This document shows positions 2,840 through 15,684 of a DNA stretch of 64,000 nucleotides, piece after piece; positions within the stretch are counted from its first letter, which is position 1, and each line of letters starts with the position of its first letter. The notes under the pieces were generated by a model. That model was not told where the DNA came from and did not search any database. It worked only from the letters and a program-made list of their open reading frames with translations. Origin of the DNA: an uncultured Ignavibacteriaceae bacterium (lineage in GTDB: Bacteria > Bacteroidota > Ignavibacteria > Ignavibacteriales > Ignavibacteriaceae); NCBI GenBank assembly GCA_963704275.1, contig CAVPHP010000006.1, positions 8,352 to 72,351 of the forward strand. The letters run 5' to 3'. The position numbers were made by a program, and so were the translations under genes.

Positions 2840-3715
2840 GTGAAAAAAATTATCTCAATCTTTTTTGTGTTAAATTCTTTTGCAACGGCACAAATATATA
2901 TGATTGGTGTTGCGCCATTAAAAACAGGTAATTACTGGAAATACATTGACGTTGGTGGAATTTTTAATGATGTTCTGTGTTTTCAGGTAGCTGATAGTAC
3001 AAGAACTCTAATGGGCTATAATTTCAATATTGTTCAATCCTTTGAATCACCAAATTATATAAGATATTCGAGTTATAAAGTTTTAACAACTGATAGTATA
3101 TATATTAGTTATGCTACATATGTACCTGATAGTATTTATACATATTATAAAGCAAATTGTAAGATAGGAGATAGTTGGGTACAGCCTGTAAATGAATTTG
3201 CTATGTATACATATACTGTAATTGATACCTTTCATATTACGGCTTGGGGGAATAGTTATTTCTCTAAGCTAATTAAAATAACTGATTTTAATGTTACAGA
3301 AGTGTATCAGGTCTGGGCGGATCATTTGGGATTAATGGAAGAGCAAGGTGTTGGGCAATATCATATGGTATTAAGAGGCTGTGTTATAGATAGTATTGTT
3401 TACGGCGATACTACTACAATAGTGGATGTAGAAGAAATACCAAATCAAGAATTAACATATGATTTGGAGCAGAATTACCCAAATCCCTTCAATGCCATAA
3501 CTAACATAAAATTTTCAATAAAAAAAGCATCAAATGTTAAACTGAAAATTTATAATACAATTGGTGAAGAATTAAATAATTTGATTAATGAAAATATGAA
3601 TGCTGGTACATACAGTTACCAATTTGATGCTTCAAATTTAACTAGTGGTATTTATTTCTATAAAATAATAACTGATGATTATACGAATACAAAAAAAATG
3701 GTATTGTTGAAATAA
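2840..3715 (+). CDS. secreted protein of unknown function with T9SS C-terminal sorting domain
   Basis: GTG start. The signal peptide is MKKIISIFFVLNSFATAQ. The C-terminus is [19 protein letters not shown]...GIYFYKIITDDYTNTKKMVLLK (Por_Secre_tail-type CTD). Confidence 0.8.
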   Translation: MKKIISIFFVLNSFATAQIYMIGVAPLKTGNYWKYIDVGGIFNDVLCFQVADSTRTLMGYNFNIVQSFESPNYIRYSSYKVLTTDSIYISYATYVPDSIYTYYKANCKIGDSWVQPVNEFAMYTYTVIDTFHITAWGNSYFSKLIKITDFNVTEVYQVWADHLGLMEEQGVGQYHMVLRGCVIDSIVYGDTTTIVDVEEIPNQELTYDLEQNYPNPFNAITNIKFSIKKASNVKLKIYNTIGEELNNLINENMNAGTYSYQFDASNLTSGIYFYKIITDDYTNTKKMVLLK

Positions 3716-4390: not shown

Positions 4391-6346
4391 TTAAAGAGAT
4401 AATTTAATTCCGCCATAAAATGATAATCCCGGAGTAGCATAGCCGAATACCTCTTCATAATCTGTGTCTAAAAGATTTTCGACTCTTACATTCATCCTGA
4501 GAAAATCAAAAACATCATAATGTGCGGCAAAGTTAAGAAGCACATATCCTTTAAGTTCCGTTCTTTCAAATGTTGAAAAATCAATATCATCACGAGTCCC
4601 AACCCAGATAACTTCAGCATTAAAATTGGTCTTTGCAGAAAAAGAATAACTAGTAAAAAAACCTAGTTTACTTTCCGGTCGGCGCAATAACTTTGTATCA
4701 AAGTCTGATGAATTTGGACTAACATCTCTCGCGTCTGTAAAAGTATAATTAACTTTTATTTCTAAATCATCAATCGGCTTAGTCTGAAAATAAAATTCTA
4801 AACCCTTTGTTACAGCCTGTTTAATATTAATTGTTTTGAATGTTTGATAATCAAAACCAAACATATCGCTAAACTTATTGTAGAAAAAAGTAGTTCCAAA
4901 AGTCAAATTTTGTTTAAAGAAAAATTGCTCGATACCAAAATCCCAACCAAAACTTTCTTCGGGATTTAGATTTTCATTTCCATAAGCAGGATCATATAAA
5001 TAATATAATGATGGTGCTTTAAATCCTGTTCCAATTGTTGCTTTGATTTTTGTTCCTGTTTCCCAAAGCATATAAGCAGGTGCAATTCTGTAAGTAAATT
5101 GTGAACCAAATTTACTGTGTTCATCTAATCTTAAACCGGCTGCAATAAAAAAACCTTCCTCAAATTTTATTTGATCCTGTAAAAAGGCACTAATTGTATT
5201 AGCATCTTTATTAGGAATAACACTTGCATAATCAGGCAATAGAATATAGTTGAAGGAATAATATTCAGAAGATGATTCTTCTTTCTCAAATTCAATTCCA
5301 GCGGTTAACAAATTTCCTTTGCTAAGTTGAAAATCATTTTGCCAATCAATTTTATATCTTCTTCCATCATATAAAGCATTTGAATAATAGGCGCTTGCAG
5401 ATGAAGTATCAAATGAATTTTTTCTAACATTTCTTAAAAACGTTAAGCCAAGTTTCTGATTCCAATTACCATTTAATAACTTAATTTTTCCTTCCCCTCG
5501 AATTGAAAACTCTTCTTGTTTAGTTAGATAGGTCGGATCGTCACCAAACATTCCACCAAACTGATCATTGTCTGATTCTGATTTTAAAAATCTTGTATTC
5601 AAATTTATTTCTGCATTATCACTTAAATCATAACCTAAAACAGAAGTAAGATTATTAAAAGTATATCCATCTTTTTCTGTGTTGCCGTACTTTTCTGATG
5701 CCGCAGAAAAACCATCGCTGCCTGTTCTACTGAATGCAAGTGAATAATTTAATTTCTTAATTGATCCGTTTAATCCAATCATTCCTTTATAAGTATTGTA
5801 AGTACCGCCTTCTGTAAGTAAAGAAAATTTTGGCGAACCATTTCCTTTTTTTGTAATGATGTTAATAACTCCGGCAAGTGCATCAGAGCCATAAAGTGTA
5901 GATTGCGGACCTCGTAAAACTTCTATCCGTTCAATGTTATCAACAGGCAATGCGGAAAAATCGTAAACACCCGATGGATCGTTTGTAAGATTAACTTCAA
6001 CGCCATCAATCAAAACTAAAGTGTGTGATGAGTTTGAACCGCGAATATAAATATTTGATAAAGTTCCGTTGCCGCCTTGTCTTGTAAAGCTGATTCCTGT
6101 TTCATTTCTCAAAACATCAAATACGTTGTTGGAGTTACTGTTTGATAATTGTTTAGCATCTATTACAGAAATTGAACTGGCAAGCTGCAAAGTATTAGCA
6201 TTAGTTTTTGTTGCAGAAACTACCACTTCACTAAGTTTGTAATATCCTGCCGTATCAGTTTTTTGGATAATAGATTCCTGAGGAACGGTTTGATGAAAAG
6301 TGAAAAGAAAAATAAAAAGAGTAAAAAGAAATTTTGTTTTGTACAT
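4391..6346 (-). CDS. btuB: TonB-dependent outer-membrane receptor, BtuB-like (cobalamin/corrinoid uptake)
   Basis: 651 aa with a signal peptide and a TonB-box-like LSEVVVSATKT. The plug motifs are IERIEVLRGPQSTLYGSDALAGVINIITK. The C-terminal beta-barrel ends GLSFYGGIKLSL. A cobalamin riboswitch lies directly upstream on the same strand. Confidence 0.85.
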   Translation of the reverse strand: MYKTKFLFTLFIFLFTFHQTVPQESIIQKTDTAGYYKLSEVVVSATKTNANTLQLASSISVIDAKQLSNSNSNNVFDVLRNETGISFTRQGGNGTLSNIYIRGSNSSHTLVLIDGVEVNLTNDPSGVYDFSALPVDNIERIEVLRGPQSTLYGSDALAGVINIITKKGNGSPKFSLLTEGGTYNTYKGMIGLNGSIKKLNYSLAFSRTGSDGFSAASEKYGNTEKDGYTFNNLTSVLGYDLSDNAEINLNTRFLKSESDNDQFGGMFGDDPTYLTKQEEFSIRGEGKIKLLNGNWNQKLGLTFLRNVRKNSFDTSSASAYYSNALYDGRRYKIDWQNDFQLSKGNLLTAGIEFEKEESSSEYYSFNYILLPDYASVIPNKDANTISAFLQDQIKFEEGFFIAAGLRLDEHSKFGSQFTYRIAPAYMLWETGTKIKATIGTGFKAPSLYYLYDPAYGNENLNPEESFGWDFGIEQFFFKQNLTFGTTFFYNKFSDMFGFDYQTFKTINIKQAVTKGLEFYFQTKPIDDLEIKVNYTFTDARDVSPNSSDFDTKLLRRPESKLGFFTSYSFSAKTNFNAEVIWVGTRDDIDFSTFERTELKGYVLLNFAAHYDVFDFLRMNVRVENLLDTDYEEVFGYATPGLSFYGGIKLSL

Positions 6347-9317: not shown

Positions 9318-9989
9318 ATGGGCTGGTTTTTAAAATTCACAAACTCCTCAATCGGCAAAAAATTTATGATGGCTGTTACGGGGAGTTTTCTGCTAATATT
9401 TTTAATCGTTCATTTGGTTGGAAATATAACTTTGTTTTTTGGTGCAAATGCTTTTAATGCTTATGTATCAACCTTAGATGTTGTTAAACCTCTGATCAGG
9501 GTGATCGAAGTAGTTTTACTCGGAGCTTTTGTTCTGCATATCTTTAATGGATTAAGATTGTGGTTGGAAAATAAAAGGGCACGAGGAGTAACATACAAGG
9601 TAAACGGTTCAAAAGATAACAGTACTATCTTTTCAAGAACTATGGCAGTTACAGGATCAATTATATTAATTTTTCTTGTATCCCATCTTGCAACTTTCTT
9701 CTGGAGATTCAATGTTCATGATCCTATGGGACTTGCAACACACCATCAATATTACGATGTAGTTGTTTACTTTTTTAATATGTGGTGGTACTCAATTCTC
9801 TATGTAGTTGCTATGATATTCTTAGGTTATCATCTTAATCACGGATTTCAAAGTGCATTTCAAACATTTGGTTGGAATCACAATAGATACTTTCCAACGA
9901 TTAAAAAAATTGGAATGATTTACGCAATAATTATGGCTTTAGGATTTGCCTCTATGCCACTTTACTTTTTGCTAACAGGAGGTAACTAA
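9318..9989 (+). CDS. sdhC: succinate dehydrogenase/fumarate reductase cytochrome b subunit (b558 family)
   Basis: 223 aa with about five TM helices carrying conserved His residues ([35 protein letters not shown]). It lies immediately upstream of, and overlaps (ATGA-type junction at 9989), the flavoprotein subunit. Confidence 0.85.
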
Positions 9990-11899
9990 TGACAAAGCTT
10001 GATTCAAAAATTCCGGCAGGAAACATAGCTGAAAAATGGACGAACCATAAATTCAATATGAAGCTGGTTAATCCATCCAACAAAAGAAAATTTGATATAA
10101 TTGTTGTTGGTACAGGCTTAGCAGGCGCATCCGCCGCGGCTTCTTTAGGAGAACTTGGTTATAATGTTAAAGCATTTACATTTCATGATAGTGCAAGAAG
10201 AGCACATAGTATTTCTGCTCAAGGTGGAATAAATGCTTCAAAAAATTATCAGAACGATGGTGATTCAACTTATAGATTATTTTATGATACTGTTAAAGGC
10301 GGCGATTTCCGTGCACGCGAAGCAAATGTTCATCGTCTTGCAGAGGTAAGCGGAAATATTATTGATCAGTGTGTTGCTCAAGGCGTGCCTTTTGCAAGAG
10401 ATTACGGCGGACTTTTAGATAACCGTTCTTTTGGTGGTGCCCAAGTTTCAAGAACCTTTTATGCAAGAGGACAAACGGGGCAGCAATTATTGCTCGGTGC
10501 AGTTAGTGCGTTGAATCGGCAGGTTGATAAAGGCTCTGTTAAGTTATTCTTAAGAAGAGAAATGCTTGATGTTGTAATTGTAGATGGTGCCGCAAAAGGA
10601 ATTGTAGTAAGAAATTTAATAACAGGCGAGATTGAAAAATATTCAGCGCACGCTGTTGTACTTGCAACCGGTGGATACGCAAACGTTTTTTTCTTATCAA
10701 CAAACGCAATGAACTGTAATGCAACTGCAATCTGGCGCGCGCACAAACGCGGAGCATATTTTGCAAATCCTAGTTTTACACAAATTCATCCAACTTGTTT
10801 ACCATTGCACGGTGAATCACAATCAAAATTGACTTTGATGAGTGAATCGTTACGTAATGATGGAAGAGTTTGGGTATCAAAGAAAAAAGGGGATATGAGA
10901 AATCCTGGAGATATTCCTGAGGATGAAAGAGATTATTATCTTGAAAGAAAATATCCTTCCTTTGGAAATTTAGCTCCGAGAGATATTTCATCACGTGCAG
11001 CCAAGGAAGTTTGTGATGAAGGAAGAGGCGTTAAAGGCGGCGAAGCTGTTTATCTTGATTTTAAAGATGCAATAAATCGTCTTGGACAAAAAGTAATTGA
11101 AGAACGATACGGAAACTTGTTTGAAATTTACGAAACCATAACGGGAGAAAATCCATACAAAACTCCAATGATGATTTATCCTGCCCCGCATTACACAATG
11201 GGCGGATTGTGGGTGGATTATAATTTGATGAGTAATGTTCCTGGATTATTTGTACTTGGTGAAGCAAACTTTTCAGATCACGGCGCAAACCGATTGGGTG
11301 CTTCTGCACTTATGCAAGGTTTAGCTGACGGTTACTTTGTTATTCCTTACACTATGGGAAATTATCTTGGTGGCGATAAACCAACACTAGTAAAAACTGA
11401 TCATCCGGAATTTGAAAAAGTTGCCAAAGAAGTAAAAGATCTAACAAATAAACTTCTTTCTATAAAAGGAAAACGAACTGTTGATGATTTACATAAGCAG
11501 CTTGGTAGAATTATGTGGGATAATGTTGGAATGGGCAGAACAGAAGCCGGATTGAAAAAAACAATTGAAGAAATAAGAAAAGTAAAAGAAGAATTCTGGA
11601 AAAATGTAACGATTCCCGGAAGCGGTGATGATGTTAATCAAACATTAGAACGTGCAGGAAGATTAGTTGATTATTTTGAGCTTGGTGAGTTAATGGCACT
11701 CGATGCTCTTGATAGAAAAGAATCTTGCGGTGGACATTTCCGTGAAGAGTATCAGTTTGAAGATGGCGAAGCTAAGCGTGATGATGAAAACTATTCTTAT
11801 GTTGCTGCATGGGAGTTTGCAGGTGAGAATAAATGGAATCTTCACAAAGAAGAATTGAAGTACGAATATGTAAAACAGGCAATCAGGAGTTACAAATAG
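9989..11899 (+). CDS. sdhA: succinate dehydrogenase/fumarate reductase flavoprotein subunit
   Basis: 636 aa. The FAD fold is [18 protein letters not shown], the covalent-FAD His context is [13 protein letters not shown], and the active-site region is [14 protein letters not shown]. The stop TAG is at 11897..11899. Confidence 0.95.
11886..11898. repeat. left copy of 13-bp direct repeat GGAGTTACAAATA flanking the nuclease cassette
   Basis: Exact 13-mer, also present at 13008..13020. The extended match is 18/20 (ggagttacaaataGtTgaag vs ggagttacaaataAtGgaag). It comprises the last codons of sdhA. Confidence 0.9.
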
Positions 11900-12988
11900 T
11901 TGAAGATTGCAGAAGCAGATATTTCTGAAAAAACTTCTTTTACTAAGATTGTTGAGTTAATTAATCAATCTAAACAAAGAGCTTTTACTTCTGTAAATAA
12001 AGAACTGATAAATCTGTATTGGAACATTGGCGAGTATATTTCTAAAAAAACTGAATCGGATGGTTGGGGGAAAAGTACGGTTGAGAAGTTGTCTAAATTT
12101 ATCCAAAAAGAAATGATTGGCTCGCGTGGTTTTTCTAATCAGAATTTATGGAGAATGAAGCAGTTTTATGAGGTTTATTCAGAATTCCCAAAACTCTCAA
12201 CAGTGTTGAGAGAATTGACCTGGTCGAATAATCTTCATATTCTTACAAAAACGAAGACTATTAAGGAAAAAGAGTTCTACATTAATCTTGCAATTAACGA
12301 AAAATATTCTGCACGCGAACTTGAGCGGCAAATAAATTCTGGGGTTTTTGAGCGGTTTTTACTTTCCAATCAAAAACTGTCAACACTGATGACAGAATCA
12401 CAAAACCAAACTGATGATTCAAAACTCTCACCACTGGTGAGAGAATTACAAAATGCTCAATTACAGCAAATAAACGAGATTTTTAAGGATAAGTATATAT
12501 TTGAGTTTTTAGATTTACCCAAAGATTTTAGCGAGAAAGATTTAAGAAAATCACTTGTAAAAAATCTTAGAGAATTTATTCTGGAATTGGGAAAAGGTTT
12601 TACTTTTGTTGGAGAGGAATATCGATTACAAGTTAGTACTAAAGATTTTTTTGTTGATTTACTTTTTTATCATCGCGGGTTACAATGTTTGGTTGCTATA
12701 GATTTAAAGATTGATGATTTTAGTCCGGAGTATCTTGGCAAAATGAATTTTTATCTTGAAGCACTTGATAAAACACAAAGGTTAGATAACGAAAATCCGA
12801 GTGTTGGATTAATCTTATGTAAAACTAAAGATGATGAAATTGTTAGGTATGCGCTTAACAGAAGTTTATCGCCGACTAAAATTGCAGAGTATGAAACTCA
12901 GTTGATTGATAAAAATATCTTAAAGAAAAAATTGCACGAACTTGGTGAGTATTATTTGTCTGCAGAAAAAATTAAATCCGCTAATTAA
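11900..12988 (+). CDS. YhcG/DUF1016-family PD-(D/E)XK nuclease domain protein inserted between sdhA and sdhB
   Basis: 362 aa. The N-terminal region [59 protein letters not shown] is typical of the DUF1016 N-domain. The C-terminal nuclease core is [25 protein letters not shown] (D...D-x-K). The TTG start lies 10 nt after the AGGAG in the left repeat. Confidence 0.8.
12194..12443. repeat. three codon-phased palindromic units inside the nuclease gene
   Basis: 12194..12212 is ctctcaaca-g-tgttgagag (perfect 9+9). 12377..12395 is ctgtcaaca-c-tgatgacag (8/9). 12425..12443 is ctctcacca-c-tggtgagag (perfect 9+9). Each unit is embedded in caaaaCTnTCAnCAnTGnTGAnAGaat. All start in codon phase 0 and encode LSTVLRE / LSTLMTE / LSPLVRE. 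Confidence 0.85.
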
Positions 12989-13007
12989 AAAAGTTTGAAA
13001 ATAATTT

Positions 13008-13020
13008 GGAGTTACAAATA
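13008..13020. repeat. right copy of 13-bp direct repeat GGAGTTACAAATA
   Basis: Identical to 11886..11898. It is directly followed by the sdhB ATG at 13021 and supplies a GGAG ribosome-binding site. Confidence 0.9.
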
Positions 13021-13791
13021 ATGGAAGCAAAAAAGTTAAATCTTACTCTTAACATTTGGAGACAGAAAAATAATAAATCTGTTGGAAGTTTTGCTGAATA
13101 CAAAGTTCAGGTTTCTCCTGATGCATCTTTTCTTGAAATGCTTGATGAGTTAAATAATACCCTGGAATTAAAGGGCGAAGAAGCAATACACTTTGAAAGT
13201 GATTGCCGTGAAGGAATTTGCGGAACTTGCGGATTAGTTATAAATGGACACGCCCATGGACCAATACCAAAAATTGCAACTTGCCAATTACATATGCGTA
13301 ACTTTAAAGATGGTGAAACAATTTGGGTTGAACCTTTTAGAGCAAAAGCTTTTCCTATTATAAAAGATTTAATGGTAGATCGCTCCGGCTTTGATGAAAT
13401 TTTACAAGCCGGCGGTTATGTTTCTATAAACACTGGCGGGGTTCCTGATGGTAATGCTATCCCAATTCAAAAAGAAGTTTCAAGCTTGGCGATGGATGCT
13501 GCGGCTTGTATTGGTTGCGGAGCGTGTGTTGCTGCTTGCAAAAATGCAAGTGCTATGCTATTTGTTTCAGCAAAGGTTTCCCAATATGCTCTGCTTCCAC
13601 AGGGCCAGCCGGAACGATACATGAGAGTTGAAAAAATGGTGAAGGTAATGGATGATCTTGGGTTTGGAAGCTGTACAAATACTTACGCCTGCGAAGCTGA
13701 ATGTCCTAAAGGAATCTCTGTTACAAATATTGCCCGAATGAACAGAGATTTTATTGCGGCTAAGATAAAGTCTAAAGAAGTGGAAGTTTAG
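13021..13791 (+). CDS. sdhB: succinate dehydrogenase/fumarate reductase iron-sulfur subunit
   Basis: The 2Fe-2S motif is [11 protein letters not shown]. The 4Fe-4S/3Fe-4S motifs are [11 protein letters not shown] and [15 protein letters not shown] 13021 is preferred over the track TTG at 13006 because of the GGAG spacing. Confidence 0.9.
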
Positions 13792-13911
13792 TAAATAGTT
13801 AATAATAACTTATTTTATTCAAATCCCGGTTAACTTTGCCAAATAGATGGTTTAGTCTTAATCGGGATTTTTTTATATTTTTACCTGCCACTCAAACTAA
13901 AAGAGAATAAT

Positions 13912-15684
13912 ATGTTTGAAAACGAAATAAAATTTATTAGTGACTTTACACTTAACAAAGTAAAAGATCTTGGATCTTTTATAACTGTTGAAAAATTACT
14001 TGCAACAGATATTCATCCTTCTGTAAAAAAATATGTAGAGGGCGAAATAGATTATCTGATTTCTGAAGATCGCAAGAAGTTGATTGAGAATTCTTTGTTT
14101 GATTATTCAGGTGCTGAAATCTCAAATTATTTTAATCTTATCGGTAACGAAATAAAGAAGACTAAAAAGATTTCTTTTGAAGACATTAAAAACATTGTGC
14201 TTCAAGCCGTTTCCTTTAATGCTAATTACGTTGTTCGCCCAAAATGGTCGTTATCAAAATTAATTTTTGGAAACAACAAATCAGTTTCGGTTAATGAACT
14301 TAAAATGATGCTGCGTTACACTTATTATTATGAATATCTTAACAATGTTTTCATCGCATACTTATCAAAGAAAAAAATTCTGAATATTACAGTTACTGAG
14401 TTTGAACTAATTGTAAATAAGATTGACCGCGAATTATTTATGCTTCATCAAAGCAAGCTTGTTGATAATGCACTTTATGCAATTGCAGATTATTTTAGTA
14501 TTGGCGGACTTAATAAATCAAATGTTAGTGTTGAGGCTGTGGAAAATTTCTTAAAAGAAAAAAATCTTACAGAACTTCTTTTCAAACTAAAACGAGCTTA
14601 TTCAAATTCATCTAAAAAGAAAGCTGATATTGAGGATATCCGAAAAATTCTTTACTCAACTTTAAGTATTGATTCCCCATTCGTTGAAGATGCAAACGGC
14701 GAAGGAACAGCCGTTGGCGATACTTATTTTGAAAATCCACTTAAAGGTGAATTTATAAATGATGAAGAAATTTTAGAAAATGAAAATGAAATCGATGCAA
14801 ATTCTGAAATTGAATTGGATACAAAAGAAGAATTAAATGATATCGCAAATGAAGAAAATGAAATTGAATCTTTAAATATTGTGGAAGAAAAAGTTGAAGA
14901 AACCCCATTAGAAGTTGTTGAAGAAGCATTATCTAAAACTGAACCGGAAAAATTTGAAATAAATGAAGATGACAGAATTGAAACATCTGAGCTGAGAGAA
15001 CTTGAAATAAATAGTGATGATTCTGAAAGAGAACTGAATGTAAATGAAGCTGAATTACCCGAAACAGATAAATCAATTTTGAATGATTCGATTGATGAAG
15101 AAGATGTACTTGCTCATCTTACAGAAGAAATGGAAAGTGATGATGAAATAGTTATACTTGATGATAAAGAGCAGGAAGACTTATTAAATTTTTATGATAA
15201 TGAACTTGAAATATCGATTGATGATGATGTACCAATAAATAAAGATAAAAAAGAAAATGTGGATGATAATATTTCTGTGGATATAACTAATTTGGAATTT
15301 GAACATGAACTACCAATTGCTGACGAATTAGATCAGGAAGTTTCGATTGAAAAGTTGGATTTTGAAAAAGATTTACTCGGTGTTGATGAAACTAAAGATA
15401 GTGATTCAACAGAGGAAGAAAGTACAATCGAACCATTTACCAAAAAACGAAGTGATGACGTTTTTACATATCTTTCTAAAAAAGAAATTGATCGGATCAT
15501 AAAAAATCTTTTTAATTCTGATAGCGAAGATTTTGCAAACACGATAGAAAAAATGACGATGTGCAGTACTTACGAAGAAGCCTCTGCAATTTTAGATAAT
15601 GTTTTTAAGTATGCACGTATTAAACCTCACAGCCGCGATGCAAATACTTTAACTAATGCTGTATCCAAATATTTTAATGTCTAA
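13912..15684 (+). CDS. hypothetical protein with an about 250-aa hyper-acidic low-complexity central region
   Basis: 590 aa ORF with no recognised motifs. Residues about 260-510 are dominated by E/D/N/I/L. The N-terminal (about 250 aa) and C-terminal (about 80 aa) regions look globular. Confidence 0.55.
   Translation: MFENEIKFISDFTLNKVKDLGSFITVEKLLATDIHPSVKKYVEGEIDYLISEDRKKLIENSLFDYSGAEISNYFNLIGNEIKKTKKISFEDIKNIVLQAVSFNANYVVRPKWSLSKLIFGNNKSVSVNELKMMLRYTYYYEYLNNVFIAYLSKKKILNITVTEFELIVNKIDRELFMLHQSKLVDNALYAIADYFSIGGLNKSNVSVEAVENFLKEKNLTELLFKLKRAYSNSSKKKADIEDIRKILYSTLSIDSPFVEDANGEGTAVGDTYFENPLKGEFINDEEILENENEIDANSEIELDTKEELNDIANEENEIESLNIVEEKVEETPLEVVEEALSKTEPEKFEINEDDRIETSELRELEINSDDSERELNVNEAELPETDKSILNDSIDEEDVLAHLTEEMESDDEIVILDDKEQEDLLNFYDNELEISIDDDVPINKDKKENVDDNISVDITNLEFEHELPIADELDQEVSIEKLDFEKDLLGVDETKDSDSTEEESTIEPFTKKRSDDVFTYLSKKEIDRIIKNLFNSDSEDFANTIEKMTMCSTYEEASAILDNVFKYARIKPHSRDANTLTNAVSKYFNV

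Follow-up and report, generated by a model that had tools for sequence, protein, structure and literature searches.

A single-gene DUF1016/YhcG insertion at the sdhA/sdhB junction of Ignavibacteriaceae, a possible site-specific selfish element

A predicted nuclease gene of the DUF1016/YhcG family is inserted at the translationally coupled junction of the succinate dehydrogenase genes sdhA and sdhB in a 64,000-nucleotide stretch of DNA, referred to here as the window, from an uncultured Ignavibacteriaceae bacterium (contig CAVPHP010000006.1 of assembly GCA_963704275.1). The reading we favor, held with nearly as much doubt as belief, is that the insert is a one-gene selfish element with a fixed target site, spreading horizontally among Ignavibacteriaceae into their sdhA/sdhB junction, probably aided by its nuclease. 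Related genomes carry the junction in occupied and empty forms, the occupied forms belong to one YhcG subclade that appears to use this site exclusively, and YhcG divergence does not follow that of the hosts. From these patterns we infer that the nuclease cuts the empty site and drives the spread, and likewise how the short duplication flanking the insert arose. Coordinates are window positions, and the window's own locus is called WIN where it is compared with related loci (L numbers).

Results

A nuclease gene separates sdhA from sdhB

The 1,122-bp insert (11899..13020, + strand) is missing in empty-site relatives, and its limits slide within a direct repeat, GGAGTTACAAATA, whose left copy lies at 11886..11898 and right copy at 13008..13020, both on the + strand. 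The left copy is the coding 3′ end of sdhA (9989..11899, + strand), which encodes the flavoprotein subunit (Pfam FAD_binding_2 and Succ_DH_flav_C) and retains 72-98% amino acid identity in 90+ related loci. The final sdhA codons, AGG AGT TAC AAA TAG (R-S-Y-K-stop), embed a Shine-Dalgarno (SD) sequence, AGGAG, and the 3′ end reads ...AGGAGTTACAAATAG, with 11899 as its last base. The left copy, which is the single copy present at empty sites, forms the ribosome-binding site (RBS) for the TTG start of the 362-residue yhcG/DUF1016 gene (11900..12988, + strand), and this start abuts the sdhA stop. A 19-nt, AT-rich 3′ untranslated stretch, AAAAGTTTGAAAATAATTT (12989..13007, + strand), follows the gene and is kept in most cassettes. 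The right repeat copy is non-coding and gives sdhB (13021..13791, + strand; iron-sulfur subunit, Pfam Fer2_3 and Fer4 families) its SD sequence, GGAG, and a 9-nt spacer before the ATG at 13021. Deletion of the insert in silico yields AGGAGTTACAAATAATG, a TAATG-coupled sdhA/sdhB junction.

The initial annotation of the window had proposed a single-gene DUF1016/YhcG insertion at a coupled junction, bracketed by an exact 13-mer, and the sequence is as it described. The extended repeat has 21 identities in 25 positions (11881-11905 versus 13003-13027). The exact 13-mer has only its two copies on both strands of the 64 kb, where seven further matches each have 1-2 mismatches; it is thus not a common RBS context in this DNA, a possibility that the annotation had itself raised. 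The same gene order recurs in independent NCBI, ENA, JGI and Logan assemblies, so the insert is not an assembly artefact. These results confirm that a nuclease gene is inserted at the coupled sdhA/sdhB junction.

Both Pfam domains of the family match the inserted protein over nearly their full lengths: DUF1016_N (PF17761) with 144 bits against a gathering cut-off of 32.8 (E 3.5e-42), and YhcG_C (PF06250) with 194 bits against 32.5 (E 1.8e-57). The layout is an N-terminal helical domain followed by a C-terminal PD-(D/E)XK nuclease domain. Residues D249, D253, L269 and K270 are invariant in 52 homologues and supply the nuclease motif; at position 268 the window has D (IDLK) where the consensus has E (ELK). 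The published DUF1016 motif consists of acidic residues with (D/E)-x-K, E-D-E(I/L/V)K, and a 2005 study placed the family, by prediction only and with no function assigned, among PD-(D/E)XK nucleases akin to Holliday-junction resolvases (PMC1189080). The PADLOC hidden Markov model PDC-S02 matches over its full length (E 3.9e-124), and the searched collection holds at least 8,000 DUF1016/YhcG homologues at E ≤ 1e-30. No NCBIfam model matched, the PHROG match is a family of unknown function, and a PDB sequence search with the window protein returned no chain at E ≤ 1. The AlphaFold2 model has a mean predicted local distance difference test score of 62 (30-60 in the nuclease domain) and is good for the N-terminal domain only; a Foldseek search of this model against the PDB gave nothing at E ≤ 0.001, and no structural inference was taken from it.

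Close relatives carry the empty junction

The junction was surveyed in one genome per GTDB species with SdhB, which returned 80 loci. The sdhB gene directly follows sdhA in 77 of these 80 species representatives, and 3 are occupied. The closest species-level relatives (L013, L014, L015 and L028), whose SdhA and SdhB are 96-97% and 95-96% identical to those of the window, are empty. Their junction reads ...aggagttacaaataATGGAAGC, with the TAA stop overlapping the ATG, and equals the product of deleting 11899-13020. The expectation that relatives would have empty sites with one repeat copy was therefore borne out, and the site is not one that is always occupied. The −1 overlap TAATG junction occurs in 63 of the 97 loci that have both genes. 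Because the overlap is this common and is present in the closest species, the TAATG overlap with an SD sequence drawn from the SdhA Arg-Ser codons is probably the ancestral state, and the window carries an insertion. Exact-sequence look-ups of the window YhcG and SdhB matched no record.

Three Melioribacter-type loci have a 24-33-nt sdhA-sdhB spacer in place of the TAATG overlap. The spacers of L036 and L038 (Melioribacteraceae), AAAGTTTTGAAATAA... and AAAGTTTGGAATTAA..., match the cassette 3′ stretch AAAGTTTGAAAATAA with 2 mismatches directly after a TAA. Such matches arise by chance at a rate of ~3.5 per 128 kb, and the alignment p is 0.003-0.03 uncorrected; the spacer may be the scar of a lost cassette.

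A YhcG subclade appears dedicated to the site

Homologues that are 91, 84, 80, 80, 78, 76, 75, 69, 66-67 and 60% identical to the window YhcG all lie between sdhA and sdhB (L001, L002, L094, L178, L003-L012, L093, L020, L185, L025/L179-181 and L097). The subclade at 60-91% amino acid identity thus occupies this junction in 10/10 sampled lineages, which span at least six deep Ignavibacteriaceae host lineages. The homologues next in identity lie at other places: P0052, at 59%, lies between an SDR gene and an ornithine carbamoyltransferase gene, and ~77 metagenomic homologues at 52-59% identity are solitary genes in unrelated places whose neighbors come from 99 Pfam families, none recurrent. Because all sampled homologues at 60-91% identity are at sdhA/sdhB and the next ones are not, the subclade down to ~60% identity appears to be dedicated to this junction.

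The repeat is exact over 13-15 nt in most lineages, and in relatives whose sdhA stop is TAA rather than TAG it is 15 nt long, GGAGTTACAAATAAT. A TAT variant is found in both copies of L002 and L024. The right copy has decayed in L025 (GGAGTTAATAT) and L185 (GGAGTTATAAAACA) and is absent in L097; it is kept 13/13 in lineages whose neighboring untranslated stretch has diverged. The right copy of L185 is discordant with its own left copy, for which reason the C/C and T/T concordance of the repeat copies was dropped as evidence of repeated duplication.

The yhcG copy of L024 (2837-3975 of a metagenome-assembled genome) is a pseudogene, split into open reading frames (ORFs) of 123, 103 and 148 residues. 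It is flanked by a 28-nt repeat, TAAAACCGGCAATAAGGAGTTATAAATA, that stands in place of the usual 3′ untranslated stretch; its first bases are a TAAAA that the ends of yhcG and sdhA have in common. A microhomology join at this TAAAA, with a template of empty type or the left copy, suffices to explain the 28-bp repeat, which was therefore not taken to prove that the L024 cassette was inserted independently.

YhcG divergence does not track that of the hosts

Occupied and empty lineages interleave in the sdhA, sdhB and Obg trees, and the occupied lineages that can be placed there have empty nearest relatives; the trees are neighbor-joining, with few taxa and recombining flanks. Many gains and many precise losses would both produce such interleaving, since a perfect empty site is restored when the repeats recombine. 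Divergence was compared between host pairs. Close pairs (WIN-L094 and L003-L093) share 91-94% Obg, 96-97% SdhA and 84-86% YhcG identity, and distant pairs (G1 versus L003, L093 or L020, and L003-L020) share 65-69%, 83-90% and 75-80%, respectively. The ratio of far to near divergence is ~1.35 for YhcG compared with 4.1 for Obg and 4.4 for SdhA. Saturation of YhcG is ruled out as the cause of this flat divergence because L025 reaches 64-69%. The cassette history thus appears decoupled from that of the hosts, which points to horizontal spread into the same site. Either cassettes crossed between distant hosts after these hosts had diverged or several old cassette lineages circulate among close hosts, and the decoupling implies horizontal movement into the same site under both scenarios. 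The 3′ half of the L024 cassette nests with L094 and L178 (97.5% bootstrap), and the L024 host groups with L027 or L029.

The synonymous substitution rate (dS) could not be used as a transfer clock, as it is saturated (~0.5-3, some values incalculable) for every pair except WIN-L001. For that pair dS is 0.65 in sdhA, 0.29 in yhcG and 0.85 in sdhB, with a breakpoint within ~25 nt of the left junction. Over 10968-13800 of the window, sdhA and sdhB are only 82-93% identical between these two loci, and the downstream 590-residue ORF and obg are 90-99% identical. The sdh region is far more diverged than the genome background, reflecting either local import of foreign sdh alleles or a chimeric metagenome assembly.

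A history in which the nuclease plays no part also has to be weighed. It is a real possibility, somewhat on the improbable side, that yhcG is a passive accessory gene, possibly anti-phage, which entered by one old illegitimate insertion that duplicated the sdhB RBS region and was then inherited vertically, with repeat-mediated losses and occasional homologous exchange. The direct repeats allow precise loss, so pristine empty sites are no proof that a site was never occupied. Most cassette 3′ untranslated stretches are homologous, as a single founding event predicts, and the discordant C/T state of L185 is what independently drifting repeat copies would give. This history requires at least nine independent precise losses in a 24-taxon tree, however, and the flat YhcG divergence (1.35) over ~4-fold host distances can be reconciled with it only by transfer at 65-69% Obg identity or by highly unusual rates. 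Unassisted homologous recombination at ~80% nucleotide identity is, as a general matter, inefficient. The strong PDC-S02 match (E 4e-124) fits an anti-phage gene, but PDC-S02 is a candidate picked only for its embedding in other operons (10.1101/2024.01.29.577857). The window locus is not embedded in or near a known defence system: the annotated neighbors are sdhC, sdhA, sdhB, an unannotated 590-residue ORF and obg, none of them defence-related, and the same is true of all sdh-clade loci.

The duplication varies in length and spares the downstream start

Two DUF1016 loci unrelated to sdh also have flanking duplications. At L177, ~53 nt are duplicated from the ATG of a downstream POT transporter gene (3373-3425 and 4491-4543), and at L173, ~22 nt from the ATG of a downstream membrane-protein gene (646-667 and 1745-1766). 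The longest exact runs are 29 nt (L177) and 16 nt (L173) against a null maximum of 12 in 600 random pairings, and the upstream copy is a truncated remnant at both loci. The mismatches between the L177 copies are clustered, 8 within 15 nt, as if the copies stem from different alleles. At sdh, L177 and L173 alike, the duplication takes in the region where translation of the downstream gene starts, the downstream copy being the intact one, a pattern that would fit selection for insertions that spare downstream expression.

A genuine target-site duplication made by a transposon-like or integrase-mediated insertion is very unlikely to be the source. The flanking direct repeat and the similar duplications at L177 and L173 are what such an insertion would leave. 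Transposases, however, give duplications of fixed length, and here the length varies (13-15 and 28 nt at sdh, ~22 nt at L173, ~53 nt at L177). A whole clade uses one site. The Pfam search of the sole inserted ORF returned two DUF1016 domains and no transposase or integrase, no terminal inverted repeats were found around the insert, and the 64-kb window holds no second yhcG copy. An insertion sequence (IS) or DNA transposon was rejected on the nuclease-domain ORF, the lack of terminal inverted repeats and the variable duplication length. The initial annotation had reported neither transposase, integrase nor inverted repeats, in agreement with these searches. It had proposed a search for further copies of the cassette at junctions with short duplications; the window holds none, and short duplications accompany the DUF1016 genes of L177 and L173. 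Our best guess is that the duplication originated in repair, through one-sided homology and microhomology, which would explain it better than a staggered cut.

The gene is expressed with the host operon

No promoter or + strand terminator signal above shuffled expectation was found within the cassette. The yhcG gene is evidently co-transcribed with sdhCAB and, as its position predicts, translated from the SD sequence embedded in sdhA; the right repeat copy would give sdhB the same SD sequence and spacing as the empty site. Of 44 homologues at ~55% identity, 28 are co-oriented with both neighbors, which is not clearly above the usual operon baseline. Pairwise dN/dS among intact cassettes is 0.08-0.17, and purifying selection appears to keep the YhcG protein functional.

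Co-transcription, translational coupling with sdhA, purifying selection and conserved structured elements in the transcript (described below) would all be expected of a domesticated operon member that some lineages retain because it serves the host by acting on the sdh operon or its own mRNA, such as in processing or regulation through the intragenic hairpins. This explanation is highly improbable: the gene is missing in most species of the family, the closest ones included, the L024 copy is a pseudogene, and the same palindromes occur in DUF1016 genes of unrelated contexts.

The operon opens with sdhC (9318..9989, + strand; cytochrome b subunit, Pfam Sdh_cyt), whose position is constant in all related loci. 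The 590-residue ORF downstream of sdhB (13912-15684) is very acidic, has no Pfam match and is the fastest-diverging gene of the neighborhood, with 50-85% nucleotide identity where sdhA holds 85-93%.

Palindromes are embedded in the coding sequence

DUF1016/YhcG genes (L001-L185) contain 2-3 intragenic 19-nt palindromes of the form CTCTCA-NCA-N-TGN-TGAGAG, which encode K-L-S-x-x-x-R-E. In the window, palindrome 1, CTCTCAACAGTGTTGAGAG (12194..12212), encodes L-S-T-V-L-R-E; palindrome 2, CTGTCAACACTGATGACAG (12377..12395), forms 8/9 pairs; and palindrome 3, CTCTCACCACTGGTGAGAG (12425..12443), lies in a 48-nt stretch missing from 346-residue alleles and has an RNA fold of −12.3 kcal/mol (z = −4.2). 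The 362-residue alleles (WIN and L001) carry these 48 nt as two aligned 24-nt blocks (window 12406-12460) that the 346-residue alleles (L094) lack, and the extra segment, holding the third palindrome, resembles a duplication of the palindrome unit.

Codon choice is frozen where the palindromes lie. At residues 97-105, Pro97 is CCA in 94%, Leu99 CTC in 96%, Ser100 TCA in 88% and Arg104 AGA in 99% of sequences; Lys159 (AAA, 96%) and Ser161 (TCA, 83%) are also frozen. In the rest of the gene, conserved codons for Leu, Arg, Ser and Pro have synonymous entropies of ~1.0-2.5 bits (79 homologues, 52-91% amino acid identity). At palindrome 1, the 9-pair helix is paired in 95% of cells across 71 distinct sequences. 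One helix pair appears as AU 30, CG 22, GC 4 and UA 1 times, with covarying amino acid pairs T/L, P/V, A/L and S/M, and the observed covariation score was reached by 0/500 shuffles. Because synonymous sites are frozen and one position covaries through four Watson-Crick pairs, a nucleic-acid element is embedded in the coding sequence. It makes a clean case of nucleic-acid structure constraining protein sequence family-wide.

G·T mismatches outnumber A·C mismatches (17 versus 6), which is weakly consistent with folding of the sense strand; on the antisense strand, UUUU follows each hairpin. In the cassette pairs nearest to each other, WIN-L001 and L094-L178, the segment between palindromes is ~12% more divergent than the rest of the gene (82% versus 94% identity and 77% versus 88%, respectively), a hint that recombination breakpoints fall at the palindromes. 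Positions 11500-13400 matched no Rfam family at E ≤ 1. In Escherichia coli K-12, three palindromes of another sequence, CAGAC..GTCTG, lie at yhcG codons 103, 116 and 129 (L184 10134-10231). The palindromes are not sdh-specific. A scan of viral contigs for the palindrome pattern was set aside: it gave 4 matches inside DUF1016 genes and 17 outside, the 17 being near chance for 16 specified bases by a rough estimate. The palindromes might serve a resolvase-like nuclease as substrate or recognition structure, act in autoregulation or terminate antisense transcription.

Discussion

A cycle of gain, decay and loss would account for the locus if the insert is the selfish element proposed above. DNA from a cassette-bearing relative would enter a cassette-free cell, and the nuclease would make or exploit a break at or near the highly conserved junction AGGAGTTACAAATAATGGAAG. 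Repair would then copy the cassette in, with the conserved sdhA and sdhB flanks serving as homology. Once in place, the cassette would be transcribed with the operon, without a promoter or terminator of its own, and translated from the sdhA-embedded SD sequence. The insertion would be cheap for the host because the duplicated SD sequence and spacer keep sdhB translated. Recombination between the repeat copies would eventually delete the cassette precisely and regenerate the empty site. Signs of such a life cycle are seen in intact copies under selection, the broken L024 copy, and right repeats that have decayed (L025 and L185) or gone (L097).

Several observations weigh against this proposal. 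Canonical homing leaves no target duplication, and the flanking duplication of 13-15 bp (28 bp in L024) is atypical of it. The two junctions together keep the full empty-site sequence, the right one retaining 13 nt (28 nt in L024) upstream of the ATG plus everything downstream of the empty site, so that only a site spanning the position ~13 nt upstream of the ATG would be disrupted. Immunity of an occupied allele to its own nuclease is thus not obvious and would need a recognition site longer than the retained flank or cleavage at a distance. A search for co-conversion tracts was negative: two occupied loci are no closer in their immediately flanking sequence than an occupied and an empty one, as passive inheritance predicts. 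The coarse cassette clades mirror the sdhA and sdhB clades, which is also the prediction of vertical descent, although such mirroring is expected under homology-dependent transfer alike. Purifying selection over deep divergence suggests a host-useful function and fits a host-beneficial gene equally well. The composition of the cassette (GC 0.31; GC at third codon positions 0.26, against 0.19-0.29 in the neighbors) is fully host-like with no trace of recent foreign origin; a comparison of GC with the flanking genes was among the checks that the initial annotation had proposed. The longer L024 repeat, which we infer to be a secondary microhomology event, does not prove that the cassette inserted de novo a second time. 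Recombination has made the region a local mosaic, and chimeras among metagenome contigs could partly cause the mosaic patterns. Cutting of the empty site by the nuclease is a prediction.

The annotation had also likened the gene to a free-standing homing endonuclease gene, and that likeness stands in part: the polymorphism, the single site and the decoupled divergence agree with it, and the duplication and the lack of a co-conversion tract do not. On comparison, the locus appears to resemble such genes in several respects, namely site specificity, empty alleles, horizontal spread, decay and parasitic expression. A literature search found no paper proposing a homing role for DUF1016, in line with the annotation's remark that this is not an established role.

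A broader proposal, which we think rather doubtful, is that DUF1016/YhcG genes are widespread, unrecognised autonomous single-gene selfish elements that embed in operons, save the downstream start by a duplication of variable length and use their hairpins as cis-acting sites. The hairpins could then act as cruciform or hairpin substrates of a nuclease resembling Holliday-junction resolvases, mark recombination breakpoints, or form antisense or autoregulatory structures. Its examples, cited or observed, are type I restriction-modification (RM) operons, a conjugation operon, sdhCAB and a transporter gene pair. DUF1016 genes have been reported between type I RM operon core genes and beside a phase-variable type II RM gene (PMC9881135), and, in a conjugative element of Rickettsia, between traU and traW (PMC4316617). 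The PADLOC PDC systems are 145 candidates without functional tests, picked for embedding in BREX, DISARM and type I RM operons (10.1101/2024.01.29.577857).

Should the nuclease bring about its own insertion, the sdh locus would be the first evidence of homing-type selfish genes in the large DUF1016/YhcG family. It would further add a rare chromosomal case to the free-standing homing genes of bacteria, with the junction of an essential metabolic operon as its target in place of a phage gene, an intron or an intein. The locus suits direct testing, as it offers a defined candidate target of 20-30 bp, alleles that occur naturally in empty and occupied form, and one copy that has decayed. For defence discovery the locus matters as well: DUF1016 was nominated only for its embedding in defence operons, and the sdh case is embedding elsewhere too. 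Were the broader proposal true, embedding would be what DUF1016 genes do rather than evidence of defence, and the logic behind PDC-S02 would need re-reading.

Among known systems, the free-standing homing endonuclease genes of phages, such as T4 seg and mob, which act in intronless homing, are reportedly of the GIY-YIG or HNH families, with cleavage and co-conversion said to have been shown experimentally. The window locus is like them in having a lone nuclease gene, free of intron and intein, between conserved genes, with a presence that varies among related genomes and neighbors that are left unharmed; the spread of the T4 genes likewise depends on recombination with homologous flanks. The window locus differs in lying on a bacterial chromosome, in its DUF1016 family and in its 13-15-bp duplication. 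I-Ssp6803I, a PD-(D/E)XK homing endonuclease from a group I intron in a cyanobacterial tRNA-fMet, establishes that this fold can serve homing. It differs from the window protein in being small, intron-encoded and without DUF1016_N, and no sequence similarity between them was detected (no PDB chain at E ≤ 1).

E. coli K-12 YhcG (b3220), the founding member of the family, has the same two domains, three palindromes in the N-terminal half of its gene and a variable locus, but it is a distant member with another palindrome sequence and is not inside an operon junction. Among 5,426 complete E. coli genomes, 3,010 have at least 80% of the yhcF-yhcG-nanQ stretch around this gene (L184, K-12 3367827-3368954). 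The alleles are 91-100% identical, several being interrupted by IS1, IS2 or IS3 or cut to a DUF1016_N fragment, and some genomes keep nanQ only. This locus, variable and IS-ridden, is not a clean cassette and was not used as evidence of mechanism. The PDC-S02 genes belong to the same family and are lone genes set between the core genes of another operon (PMC9881135; 10.1101/2024.01.29.577857). Theirs are defence operons (type I RM, BREX and DISARM), and they are taken as defence candidates, whereas the gene of the window sits in a succinate dehydrogenase operon, with empty sites in its relatives and a duplication at its flanks.

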